A stretch of 64,000 nt of DNA from Stegostoma tigrinum (Eukaryota): assembly GCF_030684315.1 (NCBI RefSeq), contig NC_081390.1, positions 23,173,288 to 23,237,287 on the forward strand. The letters run 5' to 3'. Within the stretch, counting starts at the first letter, position 1. Each line of letters begins with the position of its first letter. Position numbers and translations under genes: made by a program. A model generated the notes under the pieces. That model did not search any database and was not told the origin of the DNA. It saw only the letters and a program-made list of their open reading frames with translations. Shown here in pieces: positions 5,810 to 61,957 of the stretch.

Positions 5810-6207
5810 TGAGTGATAATGGGAACTGCAGATGCTGGAGAATCCAAGATAACAAAGTGTGAAGCTGGATGAACACAGCAGGCCAAACAGCATCTCAGGA
5901 GCACAAAAGCTGATGTTTTGGGCCTAGACCCTTCATCAGAGAGGGGGATGGGGTGAGGGCTCTAGAATGAATAGGGAGAGAGGGGGAGGTGGACCGAAGA
6001 TAGAGAGAAAAGAAGATAGGTGGAGAGGAGAGTATAGGTGGGGAGGTAGGGAGGGGATAGGTCAGTCCAGGGAAGACGGACAGGTCAAGGAGGTGGGATG
6101 AGGTTAGTAGGTTGGAGATGGAGGTGCGGCTTGGGGTGGGAGGAAGGGATGGGTGAGTGGAAGAATAGGTTAGGGAGGCAGAGACAGGTTGGACTGGTTT
6201 TGGGATG
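5810..6207 (-). mobile_element. PLE family A 3' fragment (pseudo-LTR plus tail) with decayed hammerhead at 5909-5939
   Basis: Same sequence as the 3' end of the GIY-YIG-bearing copy at 30905-31640. 13-bp TSD CAATAAAAAAGAA (5793-5805, 6208-6220). A second short copy lies at about 5692-5770. Confidence 0.85.
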
Positions 6208-6477
6208 CAATAAAAAAGAACGCTTGGTTCCTGAAATAATACGGCCATTTCTCAAGGCTGTGAATCTTAGAACTACTCACTGCATGTGTAAAGATAAAGC
6301 TGACGATGGACACAGCTGCCTGCTTCAGGTTAACCCGGGGTCCAGTAGTTTCTTATTTGGGGCCTGAGGCCCCGGCGATGTTTTGATGGAGTCTCCTCAC
6401 CCACACTGCTGCCTTGATTACCCTCCTACAGTCAGTCAGACTCCCCCATCGACTGAGAAGTCAAGATGACTGGTCCA

Positions 6478-6665
6478 GCTCAGACAGCTGGCTTGCAATG
6501 CAGAGTGACACTGACAGTGTGGGTTCAATTCCTACACCGGCTGAGGTTACCATGAAGGGCTCTCCCCTTACCTGAGGCACAGTGACCCTCTGGCGAAAAC
6601 ACCACCGGTTGTCTCTCTAATGAGAAACCACACGTACGATCTGGTAGGACCAGGCAGTGACCTCA
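6478..6665 (+). mobile_element. Third tRNA-derived SINE family ('SINE-c')
   Basis: B-box GGTTCAATTCC then GGCTGAGGTTACCATGAAGG...GTGACCCTC. Copies near 26195-26345, 36935-37110, 53405-53590(-), 62790-63012. Confidence 0.75.
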
Positions 6666-6699
6666 TTTTCTTTAATATAACCTGAATGAGCTGAATGCC

Positions 6700-7130
6700 T
6701 TATGAGGAAAAGGCTAGACAGACTATCCCTGAATCCTCTGGCGTTAAGCAGAGTCGGAGGTGACTTAATTGAAATGTATAAATTCCCCAGTGGACTTGGC
6801 TGGGTGAATGTGGAAAGGATGTTTCATCTTGTCGGAGTGTCTAGAACGAGGCACTATCATTTAAAAACAAATGGTTGCCCATTTAAGACAAAGAGAGGAA
6901 TTAAATTTTCAGAGGGTTGAGAGTCTTTGGAATTCCCTTCCTCAAAAGGTAGTGAAACACAATTGTCAAATATTTTTAAGGCAGGCGAGATAAATTCTTG
7001 ATGACTAAGGGGAATGGAAGATTTTCAGCATCATGCAGCAATGTAGATATGGGACTGAAATTGGATCAGTCATGAACTTACTGGATGGCGGAACAGGCTG
7101 GAAGGGCTGAGTGGCCTACTCCTGTTCCTT
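6700..7130 (+). mobile_element. CR1/HER1 LINE 3' fragment
   Basis: ORF 6702..6920 RLDRLSL...GDLIEMYK...SRTRH is the CR1 ORF2 C-terminus plus 3' tail. Confidence 0.85.
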
Positions 7131-8816
7131 GTCGATGGTAATATCAATGAGCTAAAAATCTAGAACTCAAGTTGATTTTTTAGCATGATGGGTTCAAATC
7201 CCAAGTCAGCAGACGGTGAAATTTGATTTCTGGTATTACAAAACTCACCTTATGACAACATGTAATCACAATCAACCGTTGTGAAAACCCATCTGGTTCA
7301 CTCATACCTTTTAAGGAGGGAGATCTGCCATCCTTACCTGGTCTGGCTTACAAGTGGCTTCAAGTTGGAGTAATAAAAATCACGGCTGTATGAACTGTCT
7401 GTACTGTAGCAACACCAAAGGTTGTAGGGCAGGAGTAGGTGTGACAGTTAGTGAGGAACAATGTCACGGAGAGAATTTATTAACAGGTTGAGAACGAGTT
7501 TGTTCCAGGAACCAGGGAAGGTTGCAGAATTTGAAATTATATTAATGATTATCCAGCTAGACAAATTGACCAGGGTGAGGGCCATGACTGAAATATTTTC
7601 CCACTTGGCTTTATCTCACCATACAAGCTAATTCCATCTACATTACTGTCAGTGAACCAACTGTATACTGTCCTAGCTTGCAGCTCAGTTTAGCTGGTGA
7701 AATTCCATCAAACGTCCTGCACACAGTTGAGAATTATTCCAACCTTGACTCTTACCAACATGTGCTCTCAGGATATGGACAGAATGAACACATGGCTGAG
7801 TCTGTCCTAAATGAGGCAGCATCCTGCAATCTGATGTAAATGCAAATTCATTTGTTTAATCAAAAAGAAAACACAATAGTGGAATTATCAGGGGTTCTAT
7901 TTTCCAGACACCAATCATAACGATGGTTTTGTAACACCTGAGATTTTCTCTCTCGTCCAACAGGTCAATTTTTCACAATTAGTTAAGTTGTTTGATTAAA
8001 TCTTCACTAGTGAATAACAACAGTTATCAACTACCTCGTTCCTTTATTATACAGAGAAAAAAATACAGCCCTTTGATAGTTTGATCTCAATATGACACTG
8101 AACACCAGTATCAGTCTCTTCAAATTGTGAAAAAAACATTGATCATTTTTGGAGACAAAGGCTCATCAAACATGCTGTTGAGAACAATAGTGGAGCAGCT
8201 CTGTCACTAGAAATGCAATCCAGAATCTAGGACAAACCATCTTGTGACAGGAATTCAAATTCAAACAATTGAAGAAATTTGGCATGAAATAAAACCAAAT
8301 GGTCACTGTGAAATTACTAGATTGTCAGGAAATACCTGACTGGAACATAAATGTCATTCAGAGAAGGAAATATGCCATCTGTAGGTGGTCTGGCCTTCAT
8401 TTGACTCCAGACCCACAGCAATAACTTATCTCTGAAGTGGTTTGTCAAGCCATTGAGTTGTCTGGGCAAACATCTCAAAAGCAATTTTAATTTGTTTCTT
8501 TTAGTCTATTCATGGGATGTAAAAGTCTCTGGCATTTTTTATCCTCAAACTGAGTAGCTTGCTAGGCCCTCATTGAGGGCAGTTAAGAGTCAACCTTGAC
8601 GCTATGGGTCTGGAGTCATATGTAGGCCAGACCAGGTAAGAATGGTAGATTTCCTTCCCTAAAGGGCATCAGTGAACAAGATGGAGTTTTTACAACAATT
8701 AACAGTAGCTGCACAGTCAACACTAGATTAGACTTCAATTCCAGATTTCACCATCTCTCACGGTGGATTCAAACTCAGGTCCCCAGAAAATCAGAGCTTA
8801 AGGTAATTAGCATACA

Positions 8817-9047
8817 GAGAATCCCTACAGTGTGGAAACAGGCCATTCAGCCCATCAAGTCTGCACCCACCCTCCAAAGAGCATCCTAGCCAGACCCCTT
8901 CCATATCCCCACATTTCCCATGGCTAACCCATCTAGTTTGTACTTCCTTGGGCACTATGGGGCAATTTCCCACGGCCAATCCAACCTAACATGCACATCT
9001 TTGGACTGTGGGAGGAAACTGAGGCACCTGGAGGAAACTCACACAGA
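8817..9047 (-). mobile_element. HE1-like SINE, partial
   Basis: Body and tail match 634-953. Confidence 0.85.
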
Positions 9048-9121
9048 AAAAGTATATATAGCCCAGTGACATAACCACTAATGGCAACCTCCTTCCAATA
9101 CTTAGTTGTAGGCAATTAATA

Positions 9122-9339
9122 CAGGAACAAAAACAAAGTTGCTGGAAAAGCTCAGCAGGTCTGGCAGCATCTTTGGAGGAGAAAACAGAGTTAACATTTC
9201 GGGTCCAATGATCCTTCCTCAGGCACCGGACCTGAAACATTAACTCTGTTTTCTCCTCCACAGATGCTGCCAGACCTGCTGAGCTTTTCCAGCAACTTTG
9301 TTTTTGTTCCTGATTTACAGTATCCACAGTTCTTTTGGT
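9122..9339. mobile_element. Fold-back PLE family B mini-element with hammerhead motif (9191-9222, minus)
   Basis: About 85-bp inverted arms 9122-9206 and 9228-9312, plus one-sided tail. TSD AATTAATACAGG/AATCAATACAGG (9114-9125, 9340-9351). Confidence 0.85.
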
Positions 9340-9906
9340 AATCAATACAGGGCTCTTCTGTCATAACACCCACACCATGGTAATTCTGACATTACCAAGG
9401 CTGTAAGCTTTGCTTGGTTTCCATATGTTTTGTGACTTACACACCAACCTGTGTCGGGTGGAGTGAGGAAGTTTCAAAAGAAGTCTTTAAAACTGGTCAG
9501 CTTTGTAGTCTTATTTAGATGTCATGCTTCATATCATCGACAGCTTGGCCATGAGCTAAATGAAAGGCTAATTTGACAAGAAAAGGCACAATCACTTAAA
9601 AACAAACAAAAGCATCTGTGGATGCTGTAGATCAGAGACAACGATAGAAATTGCTGGAAAAGCTGAGCGGGTCTGGCAGCATCTGTGGGGTGAAATCAGA
9701 GTTAACGTTTCGGGTCAAGAGACTCTTCTTCTGGGTCATCTGATTCAGCATTGATATGACCGATAGGAATACAGTGCTGGGTGCTCTACCCTGAAAGAGC
9801 ATACCAACAGGAATACATTAGGGTTGCAAGCAGCAAGTTTGAATACACAAACAGAAAGAAAACTGCTGCCTGAACAGGGAAACTAGACACGCTGTACCAC
9901 CTAAAT

Positions 9907-10036
9907 GACAAAGTGTGAAGCTGGATGAACACAGCAGGCCACATCAGGTGCTCCTGAGATGCTGCTTGGCCTGCTGTGTTCATCCAGCTTCAGACTTTGT
10001 TATCTTGGATTCTCCAGCATCTGCAGTTCCCATTCG
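9907..10036. mobile_element. Fold-back PLE family A mini-element
   Basis: 34-bp arms 9908-9941 and 9967-10000, one-sided tail, 15-bp TSD CTGTACCACCTAAAT (9892-9906, 10039-10053). Confidence 0.88.
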
Positions 10037-11684
10037 CTCTGTACCACCTAAATTGGGATACACATTGAATACATTTTTAACGGGTGTAGCAATTTTATCA
10101 GCTGACCCCATCACTTTGTTTAGCTTTACAACTATTGCTGTCCCAATGCTGACATCCTTTGCCTTGCTGATTCGCCAAAGTTTAACTGATTGTCAGGAAA
10201 CCTGTGGATCTCACAGCCACAAACGGGAGTGAATGAGCGAGGAAATGGGAAGCTGATCTGTGGTTGTCTGCAGAGTGCTCCTTCCTGCAGTTTGTCTCCC
10301 TCCGATTCTGCGTCCATTAAGGCCAATTGTCAGTCTTCTGCCCAGTGACTGCTTGTGGGTCAGAACTATTTCTAACAGGGGCGCAGAAGACAACCCTGTC
10401 CCAAGCATACCGCCAACTGTGTTTCGGAACTGGGCAAGGATGTCGGGATGTGGTTCCAGGTGAAGCTCTGCATTAAACTGCAGCCCAGAGAAAGAAACCA
10501 CTTTCAGATCACACTGCTAGACGTTGCTTCATTGAGCACAGAATGAATTATTTTGAAATTCCAGCATCTGCAGTAATTTGCCTTTAACTGGAAATAGTTA
10601 ACCCCCTGTCCAACGATGGTACAAACACAGAGAACGCTGGAGAAACTCAGCAAGTCCGGCCACATCTGTGGAGACAGAGATAAACAGCGTTTCTGAAGAA
10701 CAGTCATACCAGACTTGAAAAGTTAATTGTGTTTCTCTCTGCGCAGATGTTTACCAACACAGAACCTTACATATTTTTGAACACAGCTGTTAAATTTCCC
10801 CTTCACATTTCCTGCATTAAGGAGAACAATTCCAGCGTCACTGGTCTGCAATGCATTCAGAATCTGAGTCTGCTCCATCCGTACCGTGAGATTTCAGGCA
10901 CAAGGTTGGTACATTGTGAACCCATGCCTTGCTGGACACCCTCCAACGTTCACATCCTTAACCTCTAACTACTCACCGGATAAATTAGCTTGTTTCCCTA
11001 ACATCTTTAACAAGCAACATTAATCCTGCTTACATAGTTTTTAAAGACAGCCTGAAGTAAATATTAAAGTCTGATGTTTTACTTGTGCGTGCTCCAGTAA
11101 GGGGGTTTACTACAGAATCAGACTCATGCACTGACAAAACACTGCACTGCGGTGGCAAGAATGTTTTGTGGTTTCATTTGATTGAAGGTCAGAGCTGAGA
11201 TCAAGTGAGGCTCCAGGTAATGGCCAAGATCACCCACACCGTCATTCTAACGGAAAGAAACACATTTTGGTGGAGCAGCTACCTGTCATCTGAAGCTACA
11301 CACACAAGGGATATGAATTTTCATACATTCATTAGACCAAATGGCAGGAAATCAAAACGACAAAGCCCTGAAGAGCTCCCCAATTTAGAGCGAGTGATGC
11401 AGAATCTGTCAAGCAACCGAGGAATAATGACGAAAGTGAAAGCAGCTGACCACTGATCCATTAGCTGGCTCATTAGCTTCTCTTTATGCCCCGTGTCAAT
11501 CTCCTGACATGCACCGTGTGGGGAAATAAACAAAGCGGGATTAGAGCCTCAGGGTTATGAGGACCGAGGCATCCAGGTGTATCTGCTGTCATGCAGTAAG
11601 GGTATTATTAAATTTGGCTGCAGTTAAGGTACAAGTCACAATCAGTCAACTGCCCATGACACATCACTCCCTAATTTTACAATC

Positions 11685-12235
11685 ATAGAGTCATACAGCA
11701 TTGAAGCTGACTCTTAGGTCCAACCAGTCCATGCCAACCACAGTCCCAAACTAAACTAATCCCACCTGTCTGCGCTTGACCCATATTCCTCCAAACATTT
11801 TTTATTCATTTACCTATCTAAATATCTTTTAAATGTTTTAACTGTACCCCCGTGCACACTTTCTCTAGCAGTTCATTCCACACATGAACCACTCAATTCC
11901 CCTCATGTCTTTTTAAATCTTTTTTCCTCTCACCTTAAAAATATGTCCCTTAGTCTTGAGATCCTCCAGCCTCGGGAAAAGGACACCTATCATTCACCTT
12001 ATCTACACTCCTTATTATTTTATAAATCTCTATAAGGTTACCTCTCAACCTCCTATGCTACAGTGAAAAAGTCTCAGCCTATCCAGCCTCTCCTTATAAC
12101 TCAATGCCTCCATTCCCAGCAATATCCTGGTAAATCTCTTCTGAACCCTGCCCAGCTCCATAATACCCTTCCTATAACAGGAAGGCCAGCAGTGGACACG
12201 GTACTCCAGAAGAGGCCTCGCCAATGTCCTATATT
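11685..12235 (-). mobile_element. CR1/HER1 LINE 3' fragment
   Basis: ORF 12045..12296 YRTLARPLLEYRVHCW...RVQKRFTRIL...LSYKERLDRL, with (CTATGA)n tail. Confidence 0.9.
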
Positions 12236-12259
12236 CAGAGGTGTATTTACTTAAATTTT

Positions 12260-12445
12260 TGATGTGGATATGCCGGTGTTGGATGGGGATGGACAAAGTC
12301 AGAAGTCACACGACACCAGGTTATAGTCCAAAAGATTTACTTGAAATCACAAGCTTTCAGTGCATTGCTCCTTCACCAGGTGAAGTCAGACTTCACCTGA
12401 TGAAGAAGCAGCACTACAAAAATTTGTGGTTTCAAATAAACTTAA
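12260..12445. mobile_element. PLE family D fold-back with two back-to-back decayed hammerheads (12351-12379 minus, 12397-12426 plus)
   Basis: Centre CAGGTGAAGTC-A-GACTTCACCTG. Motif type CTGATGAAGGAGCAGCGCTCCGAAAGCTTGTG. 13-bp TSD TATTTACTTAAAT (12244-12256, 12455-12467). Confidence 0.75.
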
Positions 12446-20488: not shown

Positions 20489-22809
20489 CTGTATAAACAG
20501 AACAGCAATTTATTGTCACTAGTAATGAAATGCAGTGAACTATGTATATGTCACCACAATTCAGTGCCATTTTAATTTCAAGAAACAGTAAAAATAAATA
20601 ATTGAGTGAGGACAACGTTGATCTTTTGTTCCCTCCATGGCTCCTAGGTTTATGGGGTGGCTGTGTGACGCTGGCCCTGAGGCTGCCAAAGCCAGGATTT
20701 CTGGTCAGGACTGACCACATTGCCACTGCCGAAGCCAACACTGAAATGACTGCACCTCCACCACAGCAAGGAGGAACAGACTGGCTGAAACTGTCACTCA
20801 AACCATCACCAGTACATTCAGTGGTTCATGAAAGCAGCTCACCACTACTTTCTCCAGCGTAACTAAGGACAAGCAATAAACGCTGGCCCAACCAGCGATG
20901 TCCATATCCCATGAGTGAATAAAACAAAATTGATCCCATAGACAGGTTTTATGCAGTGTCTCAGAGGAGGTACAGAGAAGAAACTGCAAAATGTAGGACC
21001 TGAATGGTAGAAGGCATGGTCGCCAATCCTAGGGCAAAGAAGACTGGGGATAAGGGCCAGAATTGGGAAGGGGCAGAACTCAGAAATGACTCTAAAAATT
21101 TGTGGAACTTACGGGCTCAGAGAGCTGAGCTCATGGTGGGGCTTGAACACAAGCAGTGGAATTGTAAAACTGGGACCGTGCCAGATCAGGAGTCAACACG
21201 GGTCAGCAAGCACAGGGGTGACAACTAAATGGGATTGAGTGCAAGGTGAGGCTTGCAAGGCAAAGATTTGGAATGGCTGGAGGTTATGGACGTTGAACCT
21301 AAACTTTTTTGACCTGTGACAAAGAAGATGCTAGTTTTGCCCAGGAGAATGCAATGGAAACAGTGCAATATTTTCCTCACAACTATTAAAACTTCACCAA
21401 CCTGAAAGGTTAACTTTATTTTTCTTTCCACAAACACAGAAAGACGTGTTGAGTACTGGCACCATTTCCTCAATCACTCTCACATTTTGCCACCTACAAA
21501 GTCCAGTATTTTGCCCTCAAATAGAACCCTAACACTTTACTCTGAGAATAAACACCTGCACTTGGAGTATTTGACTTAAGCTATGTGCAACACCATCTGG
21601 AGGTAACAAATTATTTTAGGAGAAGGCAACACGTGTCTATTGTTACTGTAAGGAAAAACAAATCATTATAATCTTGGCCAATGACTACAGGGGTGTTGAA
21701 ATAATAATGTGCTAGTTGTATTTTTGAACAAATCTGAATAGTATTCCAAAGGAAAGTAAAATTACCACAAGTAAAAATCATTTTAAGTAATGGTGGCACA
21801 GCCCGGTCTAGTGGAACATGTAGTCGGTAAAGTGTGGGGAGTCACGGGCCCTATCAGTGTCTCAATCACCACATGTGCACGAAGCAAAGCCAGCGACAGA
21901 AGTTTCAACTCAAGGCTTTGGGTTTGAGCAATAGCTGCGGGCACTGATGCATCCACGAGGCTGGGAGTCATGTAGATAACACGTTCACAGAGGCAGTCAC
22001 ATTGCAGCTTAAAGGCCTGGAGACAGAAAGAGAATGTGTGACCACTACAGAATCCAGGAGAAACGGGCAGGTAGTGCAGGAGTCTCTTGGGTTCGAAATT
22101 TCGAATCGGTTTTCCATTTTGCAAGCTGGTCAGGGCAATGGTTCCTCAAAAGTGTGCAGTCAGACCCAAGGCCGAGGTGACATGAACAGGTTGGCTGAAC
22201 AGATGGTGAGGAGGAAGAAAGGAGGTGCAATTGTGAGAGGGATTTCATTAATGAGAGTAACCACCAAATATTTCTGTGATCATAGACATGTCTCCAGGAG
22301 GGTATGTTGCCTCCCTGATGCCAAGGTAAAGGACAACACAGAGCAAGTGCTACACCCTGTTCTAGGGAGGGTGAACAGCCAGAAGTCATGGTCCACTTTA
22401 GTGCCAATGGCCTGAAGTGGAAGTGAGATGTGGGAATGAAGCAGGGAGTTAGCAAGCAGGACCTCAAATGTAGTAATCTCTGGATTACTCCCAATGCTAT
22501 ATGCAAGTGAGTACAGAAATAGGAGGACGAAACAGATGAATGTGCAGTTGGAAAGATGATGCAGGACAGAAGGTTTTAGAATTGGCTCTCAGGAAGATAG
22601 TAACTGTACAAGCCAGCTGGGTTGTACCAGAACAGAATTCGGACTGAGTTGCGGGTATTTTGTTGGCGCTTTTCAGTGGACTTTAAACTAATTCAGTAGG
22701 AAGTGTGGGAGCCAAGAGAGAATAATACTAGCGAGTTTTGAGAAGATTTGTAGCTCAGGTTGAGTTTCTGGATGTGAGTTTGCTCGCTGAGCTGGAAGGT
22801 TAGTTTTCA

Positions 22810-22843
22810 GAAGTTTCGTCACCATTCTAGGTAACATCATCAG
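22810..22843 (-). ncRNA. Minimal type I hammerhead ribozyme motif (PLE family E)
   Basis: CUGAUGA-U-GUUACC-UAGAAU-GGUGAC-GAAA-CUUC. Core intact, stem III palindrome mutated. Confidence 0.75.
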
Positions 22844-23692
22844 TGAGCCTCCGATGAAGCGCTGGTGTTATGTCCGCTTTCTATTTATCTGTTTAGGGTT
22901 CCCTTGGTTGGTGATGTCATTTCTTGTTCTTTTTCTCAGAGGATGGTAGATTGGCTCCAAATCAATGTGTTTGTTGATGGAGTTCCAGTTGGAATGACAT
23001 GCTTCTAGGAATTCTCGTGCGTGTCTCTGTTTGGCTTGTCCTAGGACGGATGTGTTGTCTCAATCAAAGTGGTGTCCTTCCTCATCTGTATGTAAGGATA
23101 CGAGAGATAGTGGCTCATGTCGTTTTGTGGCTAGTTGATGTTCATGTATCCTGGTGGCTAGCTTCCTGCCTGTTTGTCCAATGTTGTGTTTGTCACAGTT
23201 CTTGCAAGGTATTTTGTAAATGACGTTCGTTTTGCTTGTTGTCTGAATAGAGTCTTTTAAGTTCATTACCTGCTGTTTTAGTGTGTTGGTGGGTTTGTGG
23301 ACCACCCTGATGCCAAGAACCGTGACAAACACTACATTGGACAAACAAGCAGAAAGCTAGCCACCAGGATACAAGAACATCAACTAGCCACAAAACGACA
23401 TGACCCACGATCACTAGTATCCTTACATACAGATGAGGAAGGACACCACTTTGATTGAGGCAACACGCCCATCCTAGGGCAAGCCAGAGACATGAATGAG
23501 AATTCCTGGAAGCATGGCATTCCAACCAGAACTCCATCAACAAACACATTGGCTCCAAATCAATCTAACATCCTCTGAGAAAAAGAACAGGAAATGACAT
23601 CACCCATGCAGGAAATGACATCACCAACCCAAGGAAACCTAAACAGATAAATAGAAAGTGGGACATAACACCAGCGCTTCATTGGAGGCTCA

Positions 23693-23725
23693 CTGATGAT
23701 GTTACTAGAATGGTGACGAAATGTC
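23693..23725 (+). ncRNA. Minimal type I hammerhead ribozyme motif (PLE family E)
   Basis: CUGAUGA-U-GUUAC-UAGAAUG-GUGAC-GAAA-UGUC. Confidence 0.75.
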
Positions 23726-25099
23726 TGAAAACTAACCTTCCAGCTCAGCGAGCAAACTCTCATCCAGAGAATAATACAGAAGAATGTCAGGATGCAATAG
23801 GTATTTGGAGACTAAAAACACTAGTAAAAAGGATAAAAAAATTCAAGAGTTTAAGTTGCAATGAGGGAGAAAGGAATGAATTTTAAATCAAGGTTACTTT
23901 TCACATAGTATAGTAAATAAGACTGGGGAGTTATAGATGTGGATTGCCATATAGAAATATGTTATGGTGATAATTGAGAGCTGAATGTTAAGTATTCCTG
24001 GGTCCAAGAGTGTTGAGAAAAGACAAGAAAACAAAAAAAGGAAGATGGTGGCAGGTTAAGTACAGAGTGGGAGAAGGATGAGGTTTCAATGGGTTCAAGG
24101 ACAGAATCAATCTGAGTGCAGTTACAGAACATAAAAGGATGAATTTTCCTACTCAGTATAGTCTATGGAGTGCCAGTTGGAAGGATGCAAGGAAACAAAT
24201 CCGCGGGGAAAGTAGAGAGCCAACATTGTAGAGAGACTATAATTGAGGACTTTAACTACCTGAATATAGATTATGAGAACGGCAGCACACTGTGTGGAGA
24301 GAAGCAAATGTTCCTAGATTGAGTTCAGCTTTTTAATCCATTTCATTACAAATTTGGATTTTCACTTCACTGTAAAGTGGAAACCTTGCAAATCAGAAAA
24401 TCATCGCTTTAATTCCCAATAAAACTCAATGAAACAGGTTACAGGGAAGGAAGCACCATCAGTAACCATTTCATTAGTATTTAGAATTAACAGTATTGCT
24501 GGTGCAATGGGAGGCCATTACAGGTAGCTTGTGTGAAAATAAAACCACTTAAATGACTTTAGGTTTAATGTGTCCGTGGAGATGCATAAATATTTCATTA
24601 CATGTTATTTCAAAGTTGTAATAAATTTGCTCGTCTCTTATGACCATAAGCACAAGTGATAAAATACCCTTGTCTCAAAAAGGCTGGCAAATTAGAGAAA
24701 ACATTGCGATTAGCTGGGAGAGCAATGTTTGCCAGGGAGAGGACCTTGCTCATAAACAGTGAAATCAGTTCTTTAACATCTATGTGAAGCCAATGGCAGT
24801 TCAACACTTCAACCAAGGGCCACATCCAAAAATTCAACAGTTCCTCACACCTGCACTAGTCTTTCAGCTTAGATTACACGATCCAATATAGTAGAAGGGC
24901 TTAAACTCATTTATCACAGCATAGCTGTTTCAGTTTAATAGAAACAGCTTTCTTGGGACCCCTCAGTTTGTTTTCCTCATGCTTGATTTCCTTCTGAAGT
25001 TTAGCACTGTTCCCAATGATAACGAGTGGGTAAATCTTATCACTGAAGTCACTGTTTGGTTTCTCATTGTACAGCTGTTTTGTGTCCTGATCAACAACA

Positions 25100-27546: not shown

Positions 27547-27961
27547 TCAGAGATAATGGGAACTGCAGATGATGGAGAATCTGAGATAACAAAGTGTGGA
27601 GCTGGATGAACTCAGCAGGTCAAGCAGCATCTTAGGAGCACAAAAGCTGATGGTTCGGGCCTGGACGCTTCATCAGAGAGGGGGATAGGGAGAGGGTTCT
27701 GAAATAAATAGGGAGAGAGGGGGAGGAGGATCGAAGGTGGATAGAGGAGAAGATAGGTGAAGAGGAGACAGACAAGTTGAAGACAAGAGAGTTGCAGTAG
27801 GAGAGAGATCCCCTGAGGTTTGTCCGGAGGGAGGAGGGTAACTTCTTCAGGTTAGGCATCCCTCGAAGAGGCTTTGCAGTGAGGTCTGAAACATCAGCCT
27901 GTGTGCTCCTAAGATGCTGCTTGGCCTGCTGTGTTCATCCAGCTCCACACTTTGTTATCTT
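27547..27961. mobile_element. Fold-back PLE family A element with decayed hammerhead (27646-27676, minus)
   Basis: Arms about 27584-27660 and 27886-27960. 11-bp TSD GGAGTACAGGA (27536-27546, 27962-27972). Confidence 0.88.
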
Positions 27962-28259: not shown

Positions 28260-28602
28260 GATTAGATTACTTAGAGATAGATTAGATTAGATTAGATTCC
28301 CTACAGTGTGGAAACAGGCCCTTCGGCCCAACAAGGCCACACCGTCCCTTGAAGCATCCCACCCAGACCCATCCCCCTACAACCCACACACCCCTGAACA
28401 CTACGGGCAATTTAACATGGCCGATCCACCTAATCTGCACATCTTTGGACTGTGGGAGGAAACTGGAGCACCCGGAGGAAACCCACACAGACTCGGGGAG
28501 AATGTGCAAACTCCGCACAGACAGTTGCCCGAGGCTGGAATCGAACCCGGGTCTCTGGTGCTGTGAGGCTGCAGTGCTAAACACTGAGCCACCGTGCCGC
28601 CC
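28260..28602 (-). mobile_element. Young HE1-like SINE with (TCTAA)n tail
   Basis: Intact A/B boxes (GGTTCGATTCC), CpGs retained, GATTA repeats at 28260-28297. Confidence 0.92.
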
Positions 28603-28991
28603 CATATAAGATGTGGCATTGTGTGTTAAAAATGGCCTTTTTCATATTGACCAACAAGTCAGACTCCAACACTTACTGCACAGAAGGAGGCCATTTTCCC
28701 ACAAGGCTTAGACACAGAAGCAGGCCATTCAGCCCATTGAGTTAGCTCCAAATTTTAACGAGATCATGCCTGATCTGATAACCCTCAACTCCACTTTTCT
28801 TGCCTTTCCCCCATAACCCTTGATTCCCAATTAATTAAAAACCTCTGTAGCAATGTCCTGGCTGCTAAAACACAGACTGAGAACTTGGCCAAACAGCAAG
28901 GGATTCTGGGCCAAGTGAAACTCTAAAATCACAAAACCCACACACAGACATGTTGCAATTAAAGCAGCTAGGTGTGAACAACATTAGCATA

Positions 28992-29420
28992 CTTGCGAAG
29001 GGTCTTGCGAAGATCTGTAGCTCGGGTGGTGGATGAGGTTGTTGGCTCGCTCGCTGAGTTGGCTGGTTATAGCGAGTTTTGAGAAGATTTGTAGCTCAGG
29101 TTGAGGTTCTGGATGTGAGTTTGCTCGCTGAGCTGGAAGGTTAGTTTTCAGACGTTTCGTCACCGTTCTAGGTAACATCATCAGTGAGCCTCCGATGAAG
29201 CGACGTTGTTCTACTCTGCTTAATATTTATATGATTATCTGTTAAGTTGGTTTATGTCATTTCCAGTTCTGTTCTGCATGGGTTTGTACATGGGGTCTAA
29301 TTCAATATGTTTGTTAATTGCATTATGGGTTCAAATCCAGGCCTCTAGGATATAAGGCCTGGATTTCAACTCATAATCTGTACGATAACCTGCCAGCTCG
29401 GCGAGCAAGTCAACAGCTAA
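28992..29420 (-). mobile_element. Composite PLE family E insertion (older variant with a young pseudo-LTR end at about 29071-29212)
   Basis: 9-bp TSD ATTAGCATA (28983-28991, 29421-29429). Older part encodes LEAWI*THNAINKHIELDPMYKP, a PLE C-terminus. Confidence 0.8.
29151..29184 (-). ncRNA. Fully intact minimal type I hammerhead ribozyme motif
   Basis: uca-CUGAUGA-U-GUUACC-UAGAAC-GGUGAC-GAAA-CGUC-uga. All core bases, 6-bp stem II, ACGU palindrome, GUC cleavage triplet, UCA/UGA stem I. Confidence 0.85.
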
Positions 29421-30904: not shown

Positions 30905-31837
30905 GTGATAATGGGAACTGCAGATGCTGGAGAATCCAAGATAACAAAGTGTGAAGCTAGATGAACACAGCAGGCCAAGTAGCATCTCAGGAGCACAAAA
31001 CCTAACGTTTTGGGCATAGACCCTTCATCAGAGAAGGGGATGGGGAGAGGGTATTGGAATAAATAGGGAGAGAGGGGGAGGCAGACCGAAGATGGAGAGG
31101 AAACAAGATAGGTGGAAAGGAGAGTATAGGTGAGGAGGTAGGGGGGGGATAGGTCAGTCCAGGGAAGATGGACAGGTCAAGGAGGTGGGATGAGGTTAGT
31201 AGGTAGGAAATGGAGGTGCACCTTGAGGTGGGAGGAAGGGATGGGTGAGAGGAAGAACAGGTTAGGGAAGCAGAGACAGGCTGGGCTGGTTTTGTGATGC
31301 AGTGGGGGGAGGGGACGAACTGGGCTGGTTTTGGGATGCGCTGGGGGAAGGGGAGATCTTGAAGCTTGTGAAGTCCACATTGACACCATTGGGCTGCAGG
31401 GTTCCCAAGTGCAATATGAGTTGCTGTTCCTGCAACCTTCGGATGGCATCATTGTGGCACTGCAGGAGCCCCATGATGGACATGTCATCTAAAGAATGGG
31501 CAGGGGAGTTAAAATGGTTCGCGACTGGGAAGTGCAGTTGTTTATTGCGGACCGAGCGGAGGTGTTCTGCAAAGCGGTCCCCAAGCCTCCGCTGGGTTTC
31601 CCCAATGTAGAGGAAGCCACACCGTGTACAATGGATACAAGCGGAGACCGCTTGGTGGATGGGGAAACCAAGCGGAGGCTTGGGGACCGCTTTGCAGAAC
31701 ACCTTCACTCGGTTGGGAACAAACAACTGCACCTCCCAGTCGCAAATCATTTCCACTCCCCCTCCCATTCTTTAGATGACACGTCCATCATGGGCTTCCT
31801 GCAGTGCCACAATGATGCCACCCGAAGGTTGCAGGAA
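30905..31837 (-). mobile_element. PLE family A 3' region with GIY-YIG endonuclease domain and inverted 5' segment (31659-31837)
   Basis: ORF 31262..31768 CIHCTRCGFLYIGETQRRLGDRFAEHLRSV...PVANHFNS...EQQLILHLGTLQPNGVNVDF. Decayed hammerhead at 31001-31031. Confidence 0.93.
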
Positions 31838-32257
31838 AGCTAGCCACCAGGATACATGAACATCAACTAGCCACGAAACGACATGACCCACTATCACTAG
31901 TATCCTTACATACAAATAAGGAAGGACACCACTATGATTGGGACAACACATCCATCCTAGGACAAGCCAAACAGAGACACGCACGAGAATTCCTAGAAGC
32001 ATGGCATTCCAACCGGAACTCCATCAACAAACACATTGGCTCCAAATCAATCTACCATCCCCTGAGAAAAAGAACAGGAAATGACATCACCAACACAGGA
32101 AATGACATCACCAACCCAAGGAAACCTAACCAGATAAATAGAAAGCAGGACATAACACCAGCTCTTTGTCGGAGGCTCACTGATGTTGTTACCTAGAATG
32201 GTGACGAAACGTCTGAAAACTAACCTTCCAGCTCAGCGAGCAAACTCACATCCAGAA
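31836..32257 (+). mobile_element. PLE family E arm fused directly to the family A inverted segment
   Basis: Closely matches 23352-23768. Hammerhead at 32180-32213 has one core substitution (CUGAUGU). Confidence 0.92.
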
Positions 32258-33436: not shown

Positions 33437-33638
33437 CTGTAGACAAACAGGAGACTGGAAGAACACACCAAGCCAGGCAGCATCTGGAGGAAAGGAGAAT
33501 TCAACATTTCAGGTATTACCCTTCTTCAGTCCAGTACTGGAAACAGTGATTGCTCCTTTCCTCCAGATGCTGTGTTCTTCCAGCCTCCTGTTTGTCTACC
33601 TTGGATTCCAGCATCTGGAGTTTGTTTCTTGTCTCTAA
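33437..33638. mobile_element. Fold-back PLE family C mini-element with hammerhead (33502-33529, minus)
   Basis: Arms GTAGACAAACAGGAG...GAAAGGAG and its complement. CUGAAGA-AGGG-UAAUA-CCU-GAAA-UGUU. TSD TCAGATTTAAAA/TCAGAGTTAAAA (33425-33436, 33639-33650). Confidence 0.78.
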
Positions 33639-43276: not shown

Positions 43277-43562
43277 GGATCTGTACCATGTGGCAACAGG
43301 CCATTCAGCCCATTGAATCCACACTGACCCCCTGAAGAGCATCCCAACCAGACCTACCCTCTATCCTATCTCTGTAGCCCTGCATTTCCCATGGCCAATC
43401 TAGCTAACATGCACATCTTTGGATTGTGGGAGGAAACTGCAGCACCTGGAAGAAATGCACACAGACAGGAGAATGAACAAACTCCAAACAGACAGTCACC
43501 CGAGGGTGGAATTGAACCTGAGTCCTTTGTATTGTGAGGCAGCAGTGCTAACCACTGAGCCT
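43277..43562 (-). mobile_element. HE1-like SINE nested in a SINE-b
   Basis: HE1 head and body; SINE-b sequence on both sides. Confidence 0.87.
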
Positions 43563-46604: not shown

Positions 46605-46831
46605 AGAACAAAAACAGAAGTTGCTTGGAAACCTCAGCAGGTCTGGTAGCACCTATGAAGGGAAATCAGAGTGAACATTTCGGGTCCAGTGACCCTTCCT
46701 CAGAATGTTGGGTCACCAGAACCGAAACGTTAACTCTGATTTTTCTTCACAGATGCTGCCAGATCTGTTGAGCCTTTCCTGCAATTTCTGTTTATGTTCC
46801 TGATTTACAGCATCCACAGCTCTTTCATTTT
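46605..46831. mobile_element. Fold-back PLE family B element inserted in a SINE-b
   Basis: Inverted arms about 46605-46694 and 46710-46799. TSD CCCCAGGAAATTA/CCCCAGAAAATTA (46592-46604, 46832-46844). Confidence 0.87.
46674..46703 (-). ncRNA. Minimal hammerhead ribozyme motif (family B), core intact
   Basis: CUGAGGA-A-GGGUC-ACUG-GACCC-GAAA-UGUU. Confidence 0.75.
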
Positions 46832-50912: not shown

Positions 50913-51062
50913 CGAGAATTCATAGTGAGCGATGTGCTCAAAATCTAGAGGCAGTGCCACTCGCACCCGGACGTCGACCTTCCCCTGGCCTGATGTTGGA
51001 GAAATGGTAAAATGCTCAGAGTTATTTCCCATGAGCTGGATGTCAAACATGCTGTTGGGTGC
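50913..51062 (-). CDS. CDH23: Cadherin-23 coding exon, 150 bp, phase 0/0 (EC4; equivalent to human exon 13)
   Basis: ctttccag|GCA...TCG|gtaagt. Translates APNSMFDIQLMGNNSEHFTISPTSGQGKVDVRVRVALPLDFEHIAHYEFS, matching recalled human GLNSMFEVYLVGNNSHHFIISPTSVQGKADIRIRVAIPLDYE. Overlaps ORF 50718..51050. Confidence 0.96.
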
Positions 51063-51137
51063 CTGGAAAGGGAAGAGAAATGAAAATTACATATTTCTCT
51101 TCCAGCAACAACTTAGGGTGGCAGAAAGTTAGCACGG

Positions 51138-55089: not shown

Positions 55090-57310
55090 AAGACCATAAA
55101 ACAAAGGAGCAGAAATTAGGCAATTCAGCCCATCGAGTCTGCTCTGCCATTCAATCATGCCTGATAAGTTCTTTAACCCCATTCTCCTGCTTTCTCCCCA
55201 TTACCCTTGATCCCCTTATAATCAAGAACCTATCTATCTCAGTCTTAAATGTAGTCAATGACCTGGACTCCACAGCTTTCTGCGGCAGTGAATTCCATAG
55301 ATTCACCACTCTCTGGCTGAACTTGTTTCTCCTTATCTCTGTTCTATAAAGGGCCTTCCCTTTACCCTAAGGCTGTGCCTTTAGGTCCTAGACTCTCGTA
55401 CCAATGGAAACATCTTCCTAACACCCACTCTGTCCAGACATTCAGTATTCTGTAAATTTCAATTAGATGACTCCACATCCTTCTAAACTTCAGACAACAA
55501 ATCTTTTATCTATGCTAGCACCTTGCCTCTAACACCGTGGGCCCTTGTCTTACTCAGCAACCTCCTGTGTGGCACCTTGTCAAAGGCCTCTTTGAAGTCC
55601 AGGTAGCTAACATCCATTGGATCTCCTTGGTCTACCCTGCTAATTACTTCCTTGAAGAATTCTAACAGATATGTCAGGTATGATCTCCCCTTGATGAAAC
55701 CATGCTGACTTCACCTTGCTTTACTATTCACTTCCAAATAGTCAGAAATCTCATCCTTTACAATGGACTCCAAAATCTTATCCACAACCCAGCTTCGGCT
55801 ATTTGGCCTGTAATTTTCCATCTTTTGCCTTACTCCCTTTTTAAACAGGGGTGTCACGCTAGCGATTTTCCAGTCTTCTGGGGCCCTCCCTGACTCTAGT
55901 GATTCCTGAAAGATCACAACTAATGCTTCCGCTATCTCCTCAATTACCTCCTTTAGAACTCTGGGGTGTAGTCCATCTGGTCCAGGTAATTTATCCACCT
56001 TCAGGCCAATCAGTTTTACCAGCACCTACTCCTTGGTGATGGCCACCATACTCAGCACTGCCCCCTGACTCTCTTGAATTTTTGGGATTTTACTCATGTC
56101 TTCCTCTGTGAAGACTGACGCAAAGTAACTATTCAGTTCCTCAGTTATTTCCTTGCTCTGCACTATTATCTCTCCACTGTCATTTTCCAGCCATCCTATG
56201 TTCACTTTTGCCTCTCTTTTGCTCTTTATATATCTAAAGAAACTCTTATAGCCTTCATTTATATTACTGGCTAGTTTACCCTCATATTTAATCTTCTCTC
56301 TCCTTATTTCTTTTTTTTGTTGCCCTCTGTTGGTCTTTGTAAGCTTCCCAATCCTCTGGTTTCCCACTGCCTATTGCCACATTATATGCTTTCTCTTTTG
56401 GTTTTATGCTATCCCTGACTTCCCTCGTCAGCCATGGTTGCCGTCTCCTCCCTGTACCATGGTGCTTTTTCCTAAGAATGAATTTTTGCTGCTTCTCCTC
56501 ATAATTACTCCCAGAAACACCTGCCTTTGCTGTTCCACTGTCTTGCCTGCTAGGCTTCTCTTCCAGTCGATTCTGCCCAGCTCCTCCCTCATACCTCTGA
56601 TTCTATCTTCACCGTCTCAAATTGCAGAGTAAATTCTATCATATTATGATCACTGCTTCCTAAGGATTCCTTTATGTTAAGCTCCCTTATCTAGTCTGCC
56701 TCATTGCACCACACCAAATCCAGTCTTGCCTGTTCCCTTATGAGCTCCACCACAAGCTGCTCCAAAAAGCCATCTTGTAGACATTTCACAAACTCCTTTT
56801 CTTGCAATCCACTGGCAACATGACTTTCCCAATCCACCTGCATATTGAAATCCCCTATGATCACTGTGACTTTGCCTTTCTTACACCTTTTCTATCTCTT
56901 GGTGCATTCTGCATTCCAGCTCCTGACTACTGTGTACAGGCCTGTACACAACCCAATTCTACCTATACAGATTCCACACCATCTGACCCTACTTCGTTTC
57001 TTCCTATTGATTTAATTTTATTTCTCACTAATAAGGCAACCCCTTCCCCTCGGCCCGCCTGCCTATCGTTTTGATAGGATGCATATCCTTGAATATTTAG
57101 TTCCCAATCCTGATCCCCTCGCAGCCACGTCTCCACGATACCTACCATGTCATACATGCCAGTTTAGATCAGCCCCACAAGCTCATTTGCCATATTCCTT
57201 ATACTGCATGCATTCAGATATAATGCCTTCAGCCCTGTTTTAACCCTCCCTCTTCTCACTGTCTTTCATTTTTCCAGTGTTTGATTGCTAGCGCTGTCCA
57301 AACACTGTTC
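55090..57310 (-). mobile_element. Largest CR1 LINE copy: APE endonuclease, tether/RT start and 3' tail, internally deleted and inactive
   Basis: YDMVGIVETWL...IQGY...DRQAGRGEGVALLV; KLPGPDGLHPRVLKE...PEDWKIASVTPLFKKG..ENYRP; stops and deletions. Confidence 0.95.
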
Positions 57311-57804
57311 TACTTGTGTCTGTGTTGGAGACCTTAATAACCTCTCCTGGGTTCTCCTTCTCTGTCATTTTTTTCATATTTTTCCATGGAGTTGAATCCA
57401 TCACCACAGACATTAATCTGATGCTTTGTTTCGCACTGGGAAAAGTTTAACCATTCCCTTACCCCCAGCTTTCTAGCTTGAAGTCCTGAGAGGAGGTGAC
57501 ATTGTTAATTATTTTACCTGTAGCTCAGATCAGAAACAAGGAAGGCGCGTTTCTTAAATTAACAAATAAACAGCGGTTTTATTGCAAAAGGAGCTTGCTC
57601 AAGCAATATCCAATAACCCTTGCTGAAAAATAACACAATCACTCACTCCAAGCCTGCAAAAAATATAAAATATTGCAGAGCATTATCTCAAAAGACCCTC
57701 GACCAAGTAACAGTTAAAATGCTTGAGGGAAAAAAATACATTTACAGAATGTATAAATACTGCAGCTGAAGTCACTCTCCATAGAGGCTAGTGGACCTGT
57801 TGAG

Positions 57805-58362
57805 GATGTGAAGGTGCTGGTGTTGAACTGGGATGGACAAAGTCAGAAGTCACGCAGCACCAGGTTGTCATCCAACAGTTCTGAGGAAGGGTCAGCGGAT
57901 CTGAAAGGTTAACTCTGATTTTTTTTTCACAGATGCTGCCAGACCTGCTGAGGTTTTCCAGCAACTTCTGTTTATAGTCCGACAGCTTTATCTGAAATCA
58001 CAGGCTTTCGGAGTGCTGCTCCTTCATCATGTGAAGGAGATGTTTTGTTACCATGCTGAGTAACATCATCAGTGCATTCTCCGATGAAGCGCTGTTGTGT
58101 TTTCCCACCTGATAGTTAGACTCTGGGGTCTGTTGGAGTTGGTTACCTCATTGCAGGTTTTTCTTTGCAGTGGTGTGTATATTTAGGGTCTAATTCTACG
58201 TGTTTATTCATGAGGTAACCAATTCCAGTGGACCCCAGAGTTTGAAAACCAGGCAGGAAAACATAACGGCGCTTCATTGGAGGCTGCATTGATGATGTTA
58301 TCCAGCAGGGTAATGAAACGTCTGCGAAACAACGATCCAGCTTGGCCAGTGAACCAACCGCA
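57805..58362. mobile_element. Cluster of PLE families D, B and E-like with four hammerhead motifs
   Basis: Motifs at 57881-57911(+), 58002-58030(-), 58039-58072(-), 58289-58322(+). The last two are ends of a diverged fold-back. Confidence 0.78.
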
Positions 58363-59213
58363 ACAAATTTATGACTTACGAGTAGAAAAACTTAGGTGAA
58401 GGGTGAATGTTAGGTCAATTACTTTTTTGCAAAGGGTGATTCACAGATGGAATAGGCCACAGATGGAAGGGGAACTGGCAGAGGCTGACTGCATCAACAC
58501 AGTTGTAATGTTACCTGGTAGGTGGGACAGTGAGACTGAGTCCTTAATATGGTCAATATGTTCCAAGACACTCAGTGCAGGGTAATCAGAAAATAGAAAC
58601 TTTACACCATTCTACACAAGTTAATATTGCAACAGATGGTCAAACGTTTGGTCCAAGGGATAGGTTTATACAGCATCTTAAAGGAAGAGGAGAGGAAGGG
58701 AAAGGGATGGAGAAGTTTAGTGAAGCTACTCCAGAACTTGGGGGCAAAAGATCAGAAGGCATGGCTGCTAACAATGAAATGATAAAATCAAGGATGCACA
58801 TAAGGTCAGAATTCAAGCAGTAGAGCAATCCTGGGAAGGCATGGGGCTGAATGAGGTTACAGAGTTAGGAAAGGGACAAGTTACAGGAGGTGAAATTTGA
58901 AAATAAGGCTGACAATTTTGATACACATCTGTTGCTGGACCTGGCAATGAGAAATCAGCCAGCGGACAGTACACAAAACAGTTTGCTTGATGCATAACAT
59001 CCATAACACATCTGTATAAACTGTCCATCCATTCTCCCAGTTAGTGATACGGCTTGTCCATGTATATTGATTTCTTTGTTATGATGGCTATAGAACTGGG
59101 TTTACTAGACACAAGGCCAGAGGTTGACTGAGGACGGCAGAAAAGCTCCATGATGGGGCCAGCTGTCAGTTTTTAATCAGGTTGCATTTGCAAAGCACTG
59201 TTTTGATACTTAC

Positions 59214-59402
59214 ATCATCTTTATCCTGTACTTGGATGAACAGAGGGAGCGCGAAGCCCACCTGGGCCAACTCAGTGATACTGACGAAATACTCAGACCG
59301 ATTAAATTCTGGTGGATTGTCATTAACATCAATCACCAATATATTAAATGTTGTGGAAACTGTGGCATTTGACGGGGTCCGGTCCTCATTCAGTTCAGTG
59401 CC
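59214..59402 (-). CDS. CDH23: Cadherin-23 coding exon, 189 bp, phase 0/0 (end of EC3, EC3-4 linker, start of EC4; equivalent to human exon 11)
   Basis: ttggatag|GGC...GAT|gtaagt. Translates GTELNEDRTPSNATVSTTFNILVIDVNDNPPEFNRSEYFVSITELAQVGFALPLFIQVQDKDD, near-identical to recalled human CDH23 GTELNDDRTPSDATVTTTFNILVIDINDNAPEF...LFIQVVDKDE. DxNDN and DxD calcium motifs present. Confidence 0.97.
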
Positions 59403-60094
59403 CTATCCAAAAAGGGAAAACACAGACAGGATTACAAATAAAATATTTATACATTATTCTACAAAACATACCAAAGTGTTTACATTAAGTGCAACAAATA
59501 CTGTCGTGTAGGTAAATGTGGCAACAAACTGACAGAAAGCAATATCCCACAAACAAAAATGAATTGAATCTCTGTTCCCTTTGATATTATTGACTACTCA
59601 GAGCAGATGGAGAGAGACTGTTGCTGTGAGTTTGAGAGCCAAGGACTAAAGGGCATGCTGTAAAGATTAGACCAGGAGTGAAACTAGGAAGTGCTCCTCC
59701 ATGCAAAAGGTGACAAAACTTTAGAGCTTTCTACCCAGTTGCTGCTGGCTAAATTGTTAATTCTAAATTTGAGGTTGACAACATACAGTTAGCTGAAGGC
59801 ATTCAGGATTATTAAGCCAGGAACAAATGGCTCAGCCATAAAATGCATATTTAGAGTGATAGACGTTTTCATGTAGAATATGACAGACAGCTACAAGTAT
59901 TTGGAAGGTGGATCAGTCACGATGTTGTGGAATGGTGGAACAGGATCGAGGGGCCTCCAGCTGTTCCTACACAGTTTAGTGGAGGGATGTTTGTCAGGAT
60001 ACTGGGACAATGCCATGGTCTTTCCTGGAATAATGCTTGGGGATCCTCAACACCCACCTAAAGGGTCAGACAGGAGGGTGTTGCGTTAATAAGG

Positions 60095-60460
60095 ATGTTT
60101 AGAAGACTGAGGAGGAATCTGCTTGAAAATTACAGGATACCGAGAGGCCTGGGTACAGTGAACTTGGGCAAGATGTTTCCACTACTGGGAGAGACAAGGA
60201 CCCAAGGTCACACCCTCAGAGTGAAGGGAGGAATTTCTTCAGCCAGAGGGTGGTGAATCTGAAGAACTCATTGTTGCAGAGGGCTGTGGAGGCCGAGTCA
60301 ATCAGTGTAATTAAGTCAGAGATAGATAGGTTCTTGATTTTTAAGGGGTTTAGGGGGAGAAGGCTGGAGAATGGGGTTGAGAACTATATCAGCCAAGATC
60401 AAATGATAGAGCAGAATCAGTGGAACAAATTGCCTAATTCTGCTCCCATATCTTACGGTC
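60095..60460 (+). mobile_element. CR1 LINE 3' fragment
   Basis: ORF 60250..60471 VNLKNSLLQRAVEAES.SVIKSEIDRFL. Confidence 0.85.
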
Positions 60461-61835
60461 TTCTGGCCTGATGCCCTGTGCAATGGGAAGTGACTTCACT
60501 ACAGCAACATACAAAAAGCCAGCTCGACAAGCATTCTCGCAAAAGTCCTGCAAAATCAACTACAATGCGTAGCTGAGAAGTGTCAGGTCCCAGTTTGTCA
60601 ACTCTCAATCTACCAGTGCTGTTCTGGGAGGACACAGAAAACGCTGCAAAGACCTGGAATCTCTCCTTGAAAGCCTGGTAGCTTTGACTTTGACAAATGG
60701 GAGAGGCTTGCTACAGCAATGACCTGTCTGCCAGGTTCAGCACATTTTGAACCTGAGCACCTGATGGATAAGGCACAGCAGTGGCAGAGAAGGAAAGAAC
60801 AGGAAGACAATTCTCTGTCCAGATCTCAAAGCCTTGCAGCACCGTCCTGCCTCCACAGGCCCAAAGATTTGAAAGTCAAGGACTATTCAGTCCCATGAGG
60901 ACACAGGATAGAAACCCTGGGAGTCTGAATAGACATCATCCCTTGAGGTGGGAGATGGAAAATGATGATCTCACCAGGAATACACTACACTGACAGCTTG
61001 CATTACAATACATCACGCTGTGACAAAAATTATTATCTGAATCTAGCCATAACATAAAACAGTAAATCCAAAAAGCCAGCTTGTAGCAATTACAATTTTG
61101 GTCTGAGCAAGTAACATTTGTTGAGATGCAAAGTATATTTTGTTTTACAGACTTATCCAACTGTTAGGCTGCTACAATCAATGAGAATTGGAGTCCAAGC
61201 CATAAATCCAGATTTAACAAACATGTATTCAGCAGGCCACTGGTTCTCATATCGATTTTAATTAAAATAAAGAATTCCTCAGTGTTGAACATAAATCCAA
61301 AAAAGTAAGTCAGCACTTCTCATGGTGTGCATATGCTTCAATGCACATTTTATTATAACTTTCAGGTTTAATTTAGTGACTCAGTGTAGAGACAAAAATA
61401 GAAACAAGCAACCCTATGTAGGGGAGAGACAACAATTATTGGGATTGTAGTAATGGAATGTCCCGTACTCGGTTACCTTTGTGTGACATTCCAGGAACTT
61501 TACTGGCATTTTGGGGTAGTGTGCTGCCATTGTGTGTTCCTATCAGCCAGTAAAACTTTGTGTAAGCTTTCAAGGTTAATGTTCTTGCCAATTACATACC
61601 AAGAGCTGTCCTTCCCAACAGGTTACCGGTTTGTAACCAGTCAATAACTCAATTCTGAAGAAGGGTTATAGGACTTGAAGTGTTAACTCTGTTTCTCTCT
61701 CCGCATACCTGCCCACTTGCTCCAGGAATCTCTGTTTATCTCACGTGTCCAGCATCCACAGTTTTCTGTTTTATTAAACTCAAGTTCTTTGTTCATTCTT
61801 ACCAGTATTTTGGGAAACCCATTTCGGAACGTGAA

Positions 61836-61957
61836 CGTGATAATGGGAACGGCAGATGCTGGAGAATCCAAGATAATAAAGTGCGTAGTTGGATGAACAC
61901 AGCAGGCCCAGCAGCATCTCGGGAGCACAAAAGCTGACGTTTCGGGCCTAGACCCTT
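61836..61957 (-). mobile_element. PLE family A end truncated inside the hammerhead; a family B remnant lies at 61655-61770(+)
   Basis: Minus strand AAGGGTCTAGGCCCGAAACGTCAGCTTTTG with CpGs intact, lacking CUGAUG. Confidence 0.82.

Follow-up and report, generated by a model that had tools for sequence, protein, structure and literature searches.

Penelope-like elements (PLEs) carry minimal hammerhead ribozymes in their pseudo-long terminal repeats (pseudo-LTRs). This study concerns such motifs in a 64,000-nt stretch of the shark Stegostoma tigrinum genome (NC_081390.1, positions 23,173,288 to 23,237,287; hereafter the window), which overlaps the cadherin-23 gene, CDH23. As in the PLE minimal hammerheads described earlier (PMC4209133), the motifs have a core without stem III, an extra base between A9 and stem II, a G10.1-C11.1 pair and a palindromic 15.2-16.2 region, and they form many covarying families in one genome, mostly as single copies of truncated PLEs. 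However, stem I is 4-5 bp long in that report and 2-4 bp here. The Anolis Poseidon element PAc (Frangieh et al. 2024, PMC11167929) likewise has a hammerhead at the junction of the pseudo-LTR and the open reading frame (ORF), two tail ends downstream and an ORF with reverse transcriptase (RT) and GIY-YIG domains. The PAc ORF starts within the hammerhead, whereas that of our family A begins about 165 nt past the core and that of family E terminates in loop II. The accessible text on PAc does not mention 5' ends piling up at the hammerhead. Animal retrozymes without LTRs (PMC7229834; bioRxiv 10.64898/2026.07.22.740005) share type I hammerheads, a link to PLEs and a very high copy number, but they are built of tandem units of 170-400 nt, in contrast to the dispersed solo copies and fold-backs with coding parents found here. 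The Tx1 group of long interspersed nuclear elements (LINEs), with Tx1L in Tx1D, Tx1-Mar, Keno, Kibi and Koshi as examples (PMC4494074), resembles a LINE that we found in family E in its APE-RT, its zinc-knuckle ORF1, a fixed site in another repeat, tandem re-insertion and the question of hitch-hiking. The LINE described here differs in that it targets the catalytic core of a hammerhead, that of a PLE, while its 5' end resembles the PLE tail, its leader hammerhead is mutated and the PLE copies the composite as well. In the mainly open-access literature we found no report of PLE hammerhead counts in sharks, of a 5' pile-up or of a hammerhead-targeting Tx1 element, although supplementary species lists could include sharks. 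Our analysis makes it probable that the motifs are the pseudo-LTR hammerheads of at least five PLE families and that the short promoterless inserts, which make up most copies, are run-off products; it also shows that a LINE occupies the core of family E.

Families and coding parents

The earlier note on this DNA had assigned the motifs to PLE pseudo-LTRs of several families, and a search for the parent of each family, which it had proposed, bears this out by finding coding parents for five families (A to E), with RT and GIY-YIG in A and E and GIY-YIG/linker sequence in B, C and D. Two full-length family A copies (L329 and L331) contain frames of 1,112 and 1,092 aa with both domains and are laid out as hammerhead, tail, ORF and second hammerhead, with the hammerheads 3,693 and 3,633 nt apart; this hammerhead-ORF-hammerhead layout was seen in two of the four long-frame family A loci that were fetched. 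All 150 scored matches are identical across 154 RT residues, so family A is young, and the closest named relative of its protein (78%) comes from Chiloscyllium punctatum. Family E encodes RT and GIY-YIG as well, split over two frames in L248. A GIY-YIG frame lies 200-350 nt upstream in the long copies of family B, which account for 5 of 30 loci, and in those of family D, which account for 3 of the 30 loci examined and have a readable GIY-YIG in 2; one family C copy has GIY-YIG as well (L095, E 5e-7); it is the GIY-YIG/linker part of the B, C and D parents that was observed. The CxxxxCxxC linker is present in A and B and partial in D, and was not seen in E; judged by this linker, A, B and D may belong to the Neptune clade and E to the Penelope-Poseidon clade. 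Other PLE traits are partially tandem pseudo-LTRs (shown for A), inverted 5'-truncated copies and an optional 30-40 bp tail. Further hammerhead-bearing PLE variants, each with GIY-YIG (L236, L112, L105 and L123), indicate that the genome holds more than five families.

Because each of the five families has a GIY-YIG-coding parent, none of families B, C and D is an orphan retrozyme, and the suggestion of the earlier note that they are non-autonomous and retrozyme-like is not upheld at the level of families. In an unselected sample of 77 stretches of 10 kb (770 kb) at fixed positions on large contigs, only 3 same-strand pairs of the same family less than 500 nt apart occur among 188 copies, so that the sample contains no arrays of the retrozyme type. 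A related proposal, that B, C and D are separate retrozyme-like elements, or elements like short interspersed nuclear elements (SINEs), amplified from short masters, would accommodate the small size of the majority of B and D copies, which span 100-150 nt and contain no coding sequence. We regard it as very improbable, since the coding parents share the hammerhead and the tail, the short copies have no upstream box, the centres of the fold-backs vary copy by copy and the close pairs are so few.

Copy number in the genome

Counts were made over the 3.2-Gb genome, with reversed or control patterns for the numbers expected by chance. The genome-wide descriptor search envisaged in the earlier note gave 169,127 matches to a generic intact core ending in ACGU against 356 for the control. 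The family A string of that note has 92,176 exact matches (control 0), while the B and D patterns have 1,417 and 32. The 770-kb sample contains 85 motif matches, against 8 in the reversed control, and 188 hammerhead-covering copies, or 1 per 4.1 kb, 57 of which are fully intact; extrapolation yields about 780,000 hammerhead-covering copies and 237,000 fully intact ones. The very large load that the earlier note foresaw is thus real as a density of motifs, but overstated as a load of ribozymes, most copies being dead or non-cleavable. Published counts of minimal motifs are about 4,000 in coelacanth and 9,000 in Xenopus (PMC4209133, whose accessible text does not name sharks), and 126,247 type I motifs are given for axolotl (PMC7229834). 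The core-intact copies found here, at least 169,127, exceed the published counts that we have seen, and their density per base is about 12 times that of the axolotl count; the comparison is rough because descriptors differ between studies. One chondrichthyan was sampled in the tandem retrozyme survey (bioRxiv 10.64898/2026.07.22.740005). Rfam misses this load entirely: no match was obtained at the gathering threshold over the whole window, and no hammerhead family was found at E up to 10 in five loci.

Architecture and conservation of the core

Family variants were compared over 225 distinct contexts, partly from pattern-selected loci, by using the commonest intact variants. At the family level a minimal type I core is present (CUGANGA, stem II, GAAA, UH), and the families keep the palindromic 15.1-16.1 positions, the unpaired base after A9 and the G10.1-C11.1 pair. 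Around this constant core, both stems and the palindrome vary in concert, which agrees with the cross-family covariation reported in the earlier note. Stem I is shortest in A, with 2 bp (CU/AG), and has 3 bp in E (UCA/UGA) and 4 bp in both B (AGUU/AACU) and D (UCAC/GUGA), the palindrome is ACGU or AGCU, and stem II pairs as GGGU/GCCC, GGGUC/GACCC, GGAGC/GCUCC or GUUACC/GGUGAC. The statement that stem II differs completely between families goes too far, for A, B and C all begin with GGGU. The triplet contexts GUU and GCUU occur in B and D. Among 83 unselected family A copies, non-CpG departures affect 15 of 823 core cells (1.8%) versus 372 of 4,497 tail cells (8.3%). Columns split between subfamilies number 0 in the core and 9 in the tail, and without them the tail has 135 departures in 3,778 cells (3.6%; core versus tail, p 0.009).

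Ends of the short copies

In each family the 3' ends of the copies are confined to one or two points in the tail, as fixed tail 3' ends have been described for PLEs (PMC11167929, PMC8557442). The 5' ends in the 770-kb sample pile up just ahead of the core: positions -10 to -1 hold 16 ends versus 1 at -60 to -11 in family A (89 copies), 15 versus 0 in B (28 copies) and 6 versus 0 in D (10 copies). Long copies have a box at -34 (A), -33 (B) and -37 (D), and the 5'-end peaks at -3 in B and -7 in D lie about 30 nt past it, at short words of their own; we take the box to be TATA-like and these words to be initiator-like. Upstream of the short B and D copies the flank is either unique or an inverted tail. 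Tight fold-backs contain 92 of 266 matches, and the RNA of such a fold-back would form a duplex in which the ribozyme could not fold. Since the 5' ends lie 1-10 nt before the core and about 30 nt past the TATA-like box, the short copies are likely run-off complementary DNAs (cDNAs) from the start site of the element, and since these inserts lack the box they are dead ends.

The pile-up could instead mark a stop of the reverse transcriptase at a folded or protein-bound hammerhead. Such a stop fits the position of the ends in three families, where they lie at the base of stem I, and needs no promoter, and the known promoter of Penelope is TATA-less (PMC2377424). A stop is, however, expected 3' of or within the structure and not beyond it, and the peaks track the TATA-like box (-3 in B, -7 in D) and not the length of stem I, which is 4 bp in both; we therefore consider this explanation unlikely and prefer a transcription start. 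A 3' splice site was rejected as a source of the pile-up, because AG occurs only in B and the short copies have no common upstream exon. Two contig runs against a full-length family A copy were unable to show ends or expression; among the loose ends listed, the one with most contigs in X2 lies at -1 of the core, but X2 may be the source sample.

A Tx1-like LINE within the family E core

Eight of the 30 best family E loci run on into a 5.3-kb LINE with a ZCCHC3-like/zinc-knuckle ORF1 and an APE-RT ORF2. By its best named match it is Tx1-like, its relatives including the TX1 149 kDa protein (36%). Its 3' end has 2,289 exact matches in the genome, so that at least 2,289 copies exist; those fetched are L266:2410-7735, L250-L257 and L268-L317. 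The LINE lies outside the window, one copy (L266:2410-7735) being found 12-18 kb before base 1. Behind every one of the 30 unselected 3' ends, each with an A-rich tail, stands the 3' half of the E core (identified by pattern in 28 and by eye in 2), and in 3 of 30 fetched ends the half core is followed by another LINE, forming tandem units. Both ends of the LINE have a 15-16 bp repeat, which reaches from stem II to the second base beyond the cut site. The E-tail variant behind the LINE requires 13 changes on the LINE tree, compared with a shuffled mean of 13.2 (41 rows); this tree is largely star-like, and the flank variants are mixed within a supported young clade. Since flank variant and LINE tree are unlinked, the insertions are independent, and pure hitch-hiking of one LINE-PLE master is ruled out by this result together with the tandem units. 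Pure site-specific insertion is ruled out as well, because in 4 of 5 inverted pairs that were fetched two truncated pieces of the LINE meet head to head and the outer ends are PLE tails; these pairs, L298, L300, L301 and L302, have a short tail on one side and a long one on the other. The PLE thus copies the composite too, and some of the LINE copies hitch-hike in this way. More distant Tx1-like LINEs, 68-82% alike in the 3' part, were seen in L129, L142 and L096 (minus strand), and their ends have no hammerhead behind them.

Of 23 hammerheads that precede the LINE, 1 is intact, compared with 20 of 42 plain family E copies. A6 is changed to U in 9 of 23 versus 0 of 42 (p 3e-5, a value that overstates independence because the copies are related), and G16.2 to A in 20 of 23 versus 11 of 42, while the 3' duplicate behind the LINE keeps G16.2 in 37 of 45. 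It follows from this difference that the LINE RNA likely includes the leader, which would be joined by homology. The leader hammerhead is likely disabled. The loss may be selected, as cutting would remove the cap, or may be just relaxed, as two of the three changes are CpG decay.

Junctions at the predicted cut site

Position +28 is the first base past the predicted cut of family A. Among the family A copies truncated between +23 and +35 (9,321 matches), about 32 of the 100 listed begin at +28, with one each at +27 and +29 (read by eye), and 19 of the about 32 are perfect fold-backs. Fold-backs centred between +16 and +31 number 1,481; of 50 listed, 28 are centred on AGCT at +28..+31, 7 on GGCC, 2 on ACGT and 13 elsewhere, whereas among 50 listed from the downstream control (948 fold-backs) the centre is GGCC in 3 and a newly formed AAGCTT in 4. 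The AGCT at +28..+31 is exactly the word through which two cDNAs made from cut RNA would pair, but the spike may also be plain microhomology favouring AGCT. Cut-site-joined copies make up at most about 1% of family A copies, and in family B the cut-site test failed (0 of 23 junctions).

The motif may no longer cut in this lineage and be kept as a protein-binding fold or a promoter-proximal element. The weak stem I, the inactive predicted folds (see below), the GUU and GCUU contexts of B and D and the lack of B junctions are in keeping with this, and cleavage is dispensable for insertion in vitro (PMC11167929). It is, however, hard to reconcile with a core and palindrome kept over five unrelated flanks, with the family A spike at the cut site and with a loss of the core specific to copies ahead of the LINE, and we judge it improbable.

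Copies in the window and the host gene

All 22 places named in the earlier note hold a recognisable hammerhead-like motif. Searches with natural copies as query (nhmmer) gave 37 hammerhead/tail matches in the window, 22 of them spanning the hammerhead, and a strict scan found 7 zero-mismatch core and stem matches versus 0-3 in 6 Markov shuffles. The window copies are mostly decayed: the CUGANGA...GAAA core is kept in 10 of the 22 listed, and core, palindrome and UH together in 1, a family E hammerhead with tail at 29109..29196 (minus strand; core start 29184, predicted cut after 29151), in which the GUC triplet is intact as well. In a family E inverted pair (22768..23767) the two hammerheads, at 22843 on the minus and 23693 on the plus strand, have mutated palindromes and enclose GIY-YIG remnants, and their tails point outward. 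At 31816..32255 (plus) a C-terminal GIY-YIG frame of family E runs into a hammerhead at 32180 with A9 mutated; the reading frame crosses the core and stops in loop II (32180-32196), as it does in L075. A family A 3' end at 30940..31771 (minus) comprises a GIY-YIG frame (31265-31771), the pseudo-LTR, a hammerhead at 31031 with G12 mutated and the tail, and at 31660-31837 / 31816 a family E piece adjoins the inverted arm of a family A insert, a nested or switched junction. Family A is further represented by a hammerhead with tail at 5848..5951 (minus; hammerhead 5939, G12 mutated), an inverted pair at 27585..27959 (hammerhead 27676, minus, GAAA broken) and a copy 5'-truncated within the hammerhead at 61872..61957 (minus). 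Short fold-backs belong to family B at 9135..9299 and 46609..46795 (cores 9222 and 46703, both minus), to C at 33439..33598 (core 33529, minus) and to D at 12293..12442 (both cores mutated). A short solo B copy at 57869..57975 (plus) starts just 5' of its core (57881), and is followed by a D copy at 57969..58032 (minus, core mutated) and an older E-like inverted pair at 58031..58364 (58072 minus, 58289 plus, cores mutated).

Two cadherin exons of the same gene lie in the window on the minus strand, one at 59217..59402 (end of cadherin-23 repeat 3 onward; sole match 5w4t, E 6e-9) and one at 50913..51062 (Pfam Cadherin, E 2.7e-5), and a third lies past the window end, which makes cadherin-23, read from the minus strand, the host gene. 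A PDB search with the exon at 50.9 kb gave nothing useful. The placement of the copies in CDH23 introns by the earlier note is established above 51 kb; below it an intron location is only presumed, because a crude motif scan found no exon under 50.9 kb. Nothing ties the hammerhead load to CDH23, and the intron copies are passive and mostly dead. Regulation of the CDH23 pre-mRNA by domesticated intronic hammerheads could be argued from the position of the sole intact copy (29184) on the sense strand of the gene and from the conserved intronic hammerheads of amniotes (PMC6155905). With 21 of the 22 copies damaged, both strands used and a density (22 in 64 kb) near the genome mean of 1 per 4.1 kb, such regulation is extremely improbable. 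The window also contains an array of a 17-nt unit at 63216-63969 (at least 29 register copies) and a dispersed 220-nt repeat (734-954, 3045-3265, 28383-28603 and 43384-43561), which presumably resembles shark SINEs.

Discussion

We propose a copying cycle in which transcription would start at the foot of stem I, a few bases ahead of the core, and the RT of the element would prime in the first tail about 85-130 nt behind the motif, so that a cDNA of 100-140 nt runs off the capped start of the RNA and gives a short insert. Fold-back copies would arise by priming on both target strands. The ribozyme, which selection may have kept in master elements, would cut only as a dimer, with protein assistance and at low yield, and mostly uncut RNA would therefore be copied. 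The LINE, which inserts into the core of family E, likely uses the PLE promoter and has the likely disabled hammerhead in its leader; the PLE machinery copies the composite too. In the anole PLE, internal priming at tail ends, cutting of both strands, protein-assisted cleavage and use of uncut RNA have been described (PMC11167929).

Several observations weigh against this cycle. Family E shows no pile-up of 5' ends (0 at -10 to -1 versus 3 at -60 to -11 of 8), and end positions taken from local alignments are accurate only to within a few bases. Penelope of D. virilis starts well upstream of the hammerhead, from an internal promoter without TATA (PMC2377424). The better conservation of the core than of the tail, a comparison of core and flanks that the earlier note had named, holds in family A as a whole but is not seen in family B (23 copies; core 7.5% versus unsplit tail 8.7%, p 0.61) or among the youngest A copies (p 0.12). 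Family A has a stem I of just 2 bp, and in the monomer folds predicted for A and E the core is hidden within an inactive hairpin. Cofolding of dimers predicted no clear active dimer. The weak stem I and the buried core fit a need for dimers and protein help (PMC4209133, PMC11167929), and they fit an inactive motif too.

More tentative, and in our judgement rather less probable than its opposite, is the idea that the minimal PLE hammerhead is cleaved in the germ line of the shark and that the genome has recorded this twice, in about 800 family A cut-site fold-backs and in a LINE leader that would have evolved a dead hammerhead so that its capped RNA from the PLE promoter stays whole. If this is true, the cut-site fold-backs, the LINE leader and the hundreds of thousands of run-off copies that mark the start site would together document, in nature and in vivo, how PLEs are copied. 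PLE hammerheads are of a known kind, and what is unusual here is the scale, together with three testable leads. The role of the PLE hammerhead in cells has been called unclear (PMC8557442). The genome of S. tigrinum offers a young, intact-looking family A and natural, likely loss-of-function hammerheads ahead of a parasitic LINE, and since start and cut sites are predicted to a few bases, this role becomes testable.

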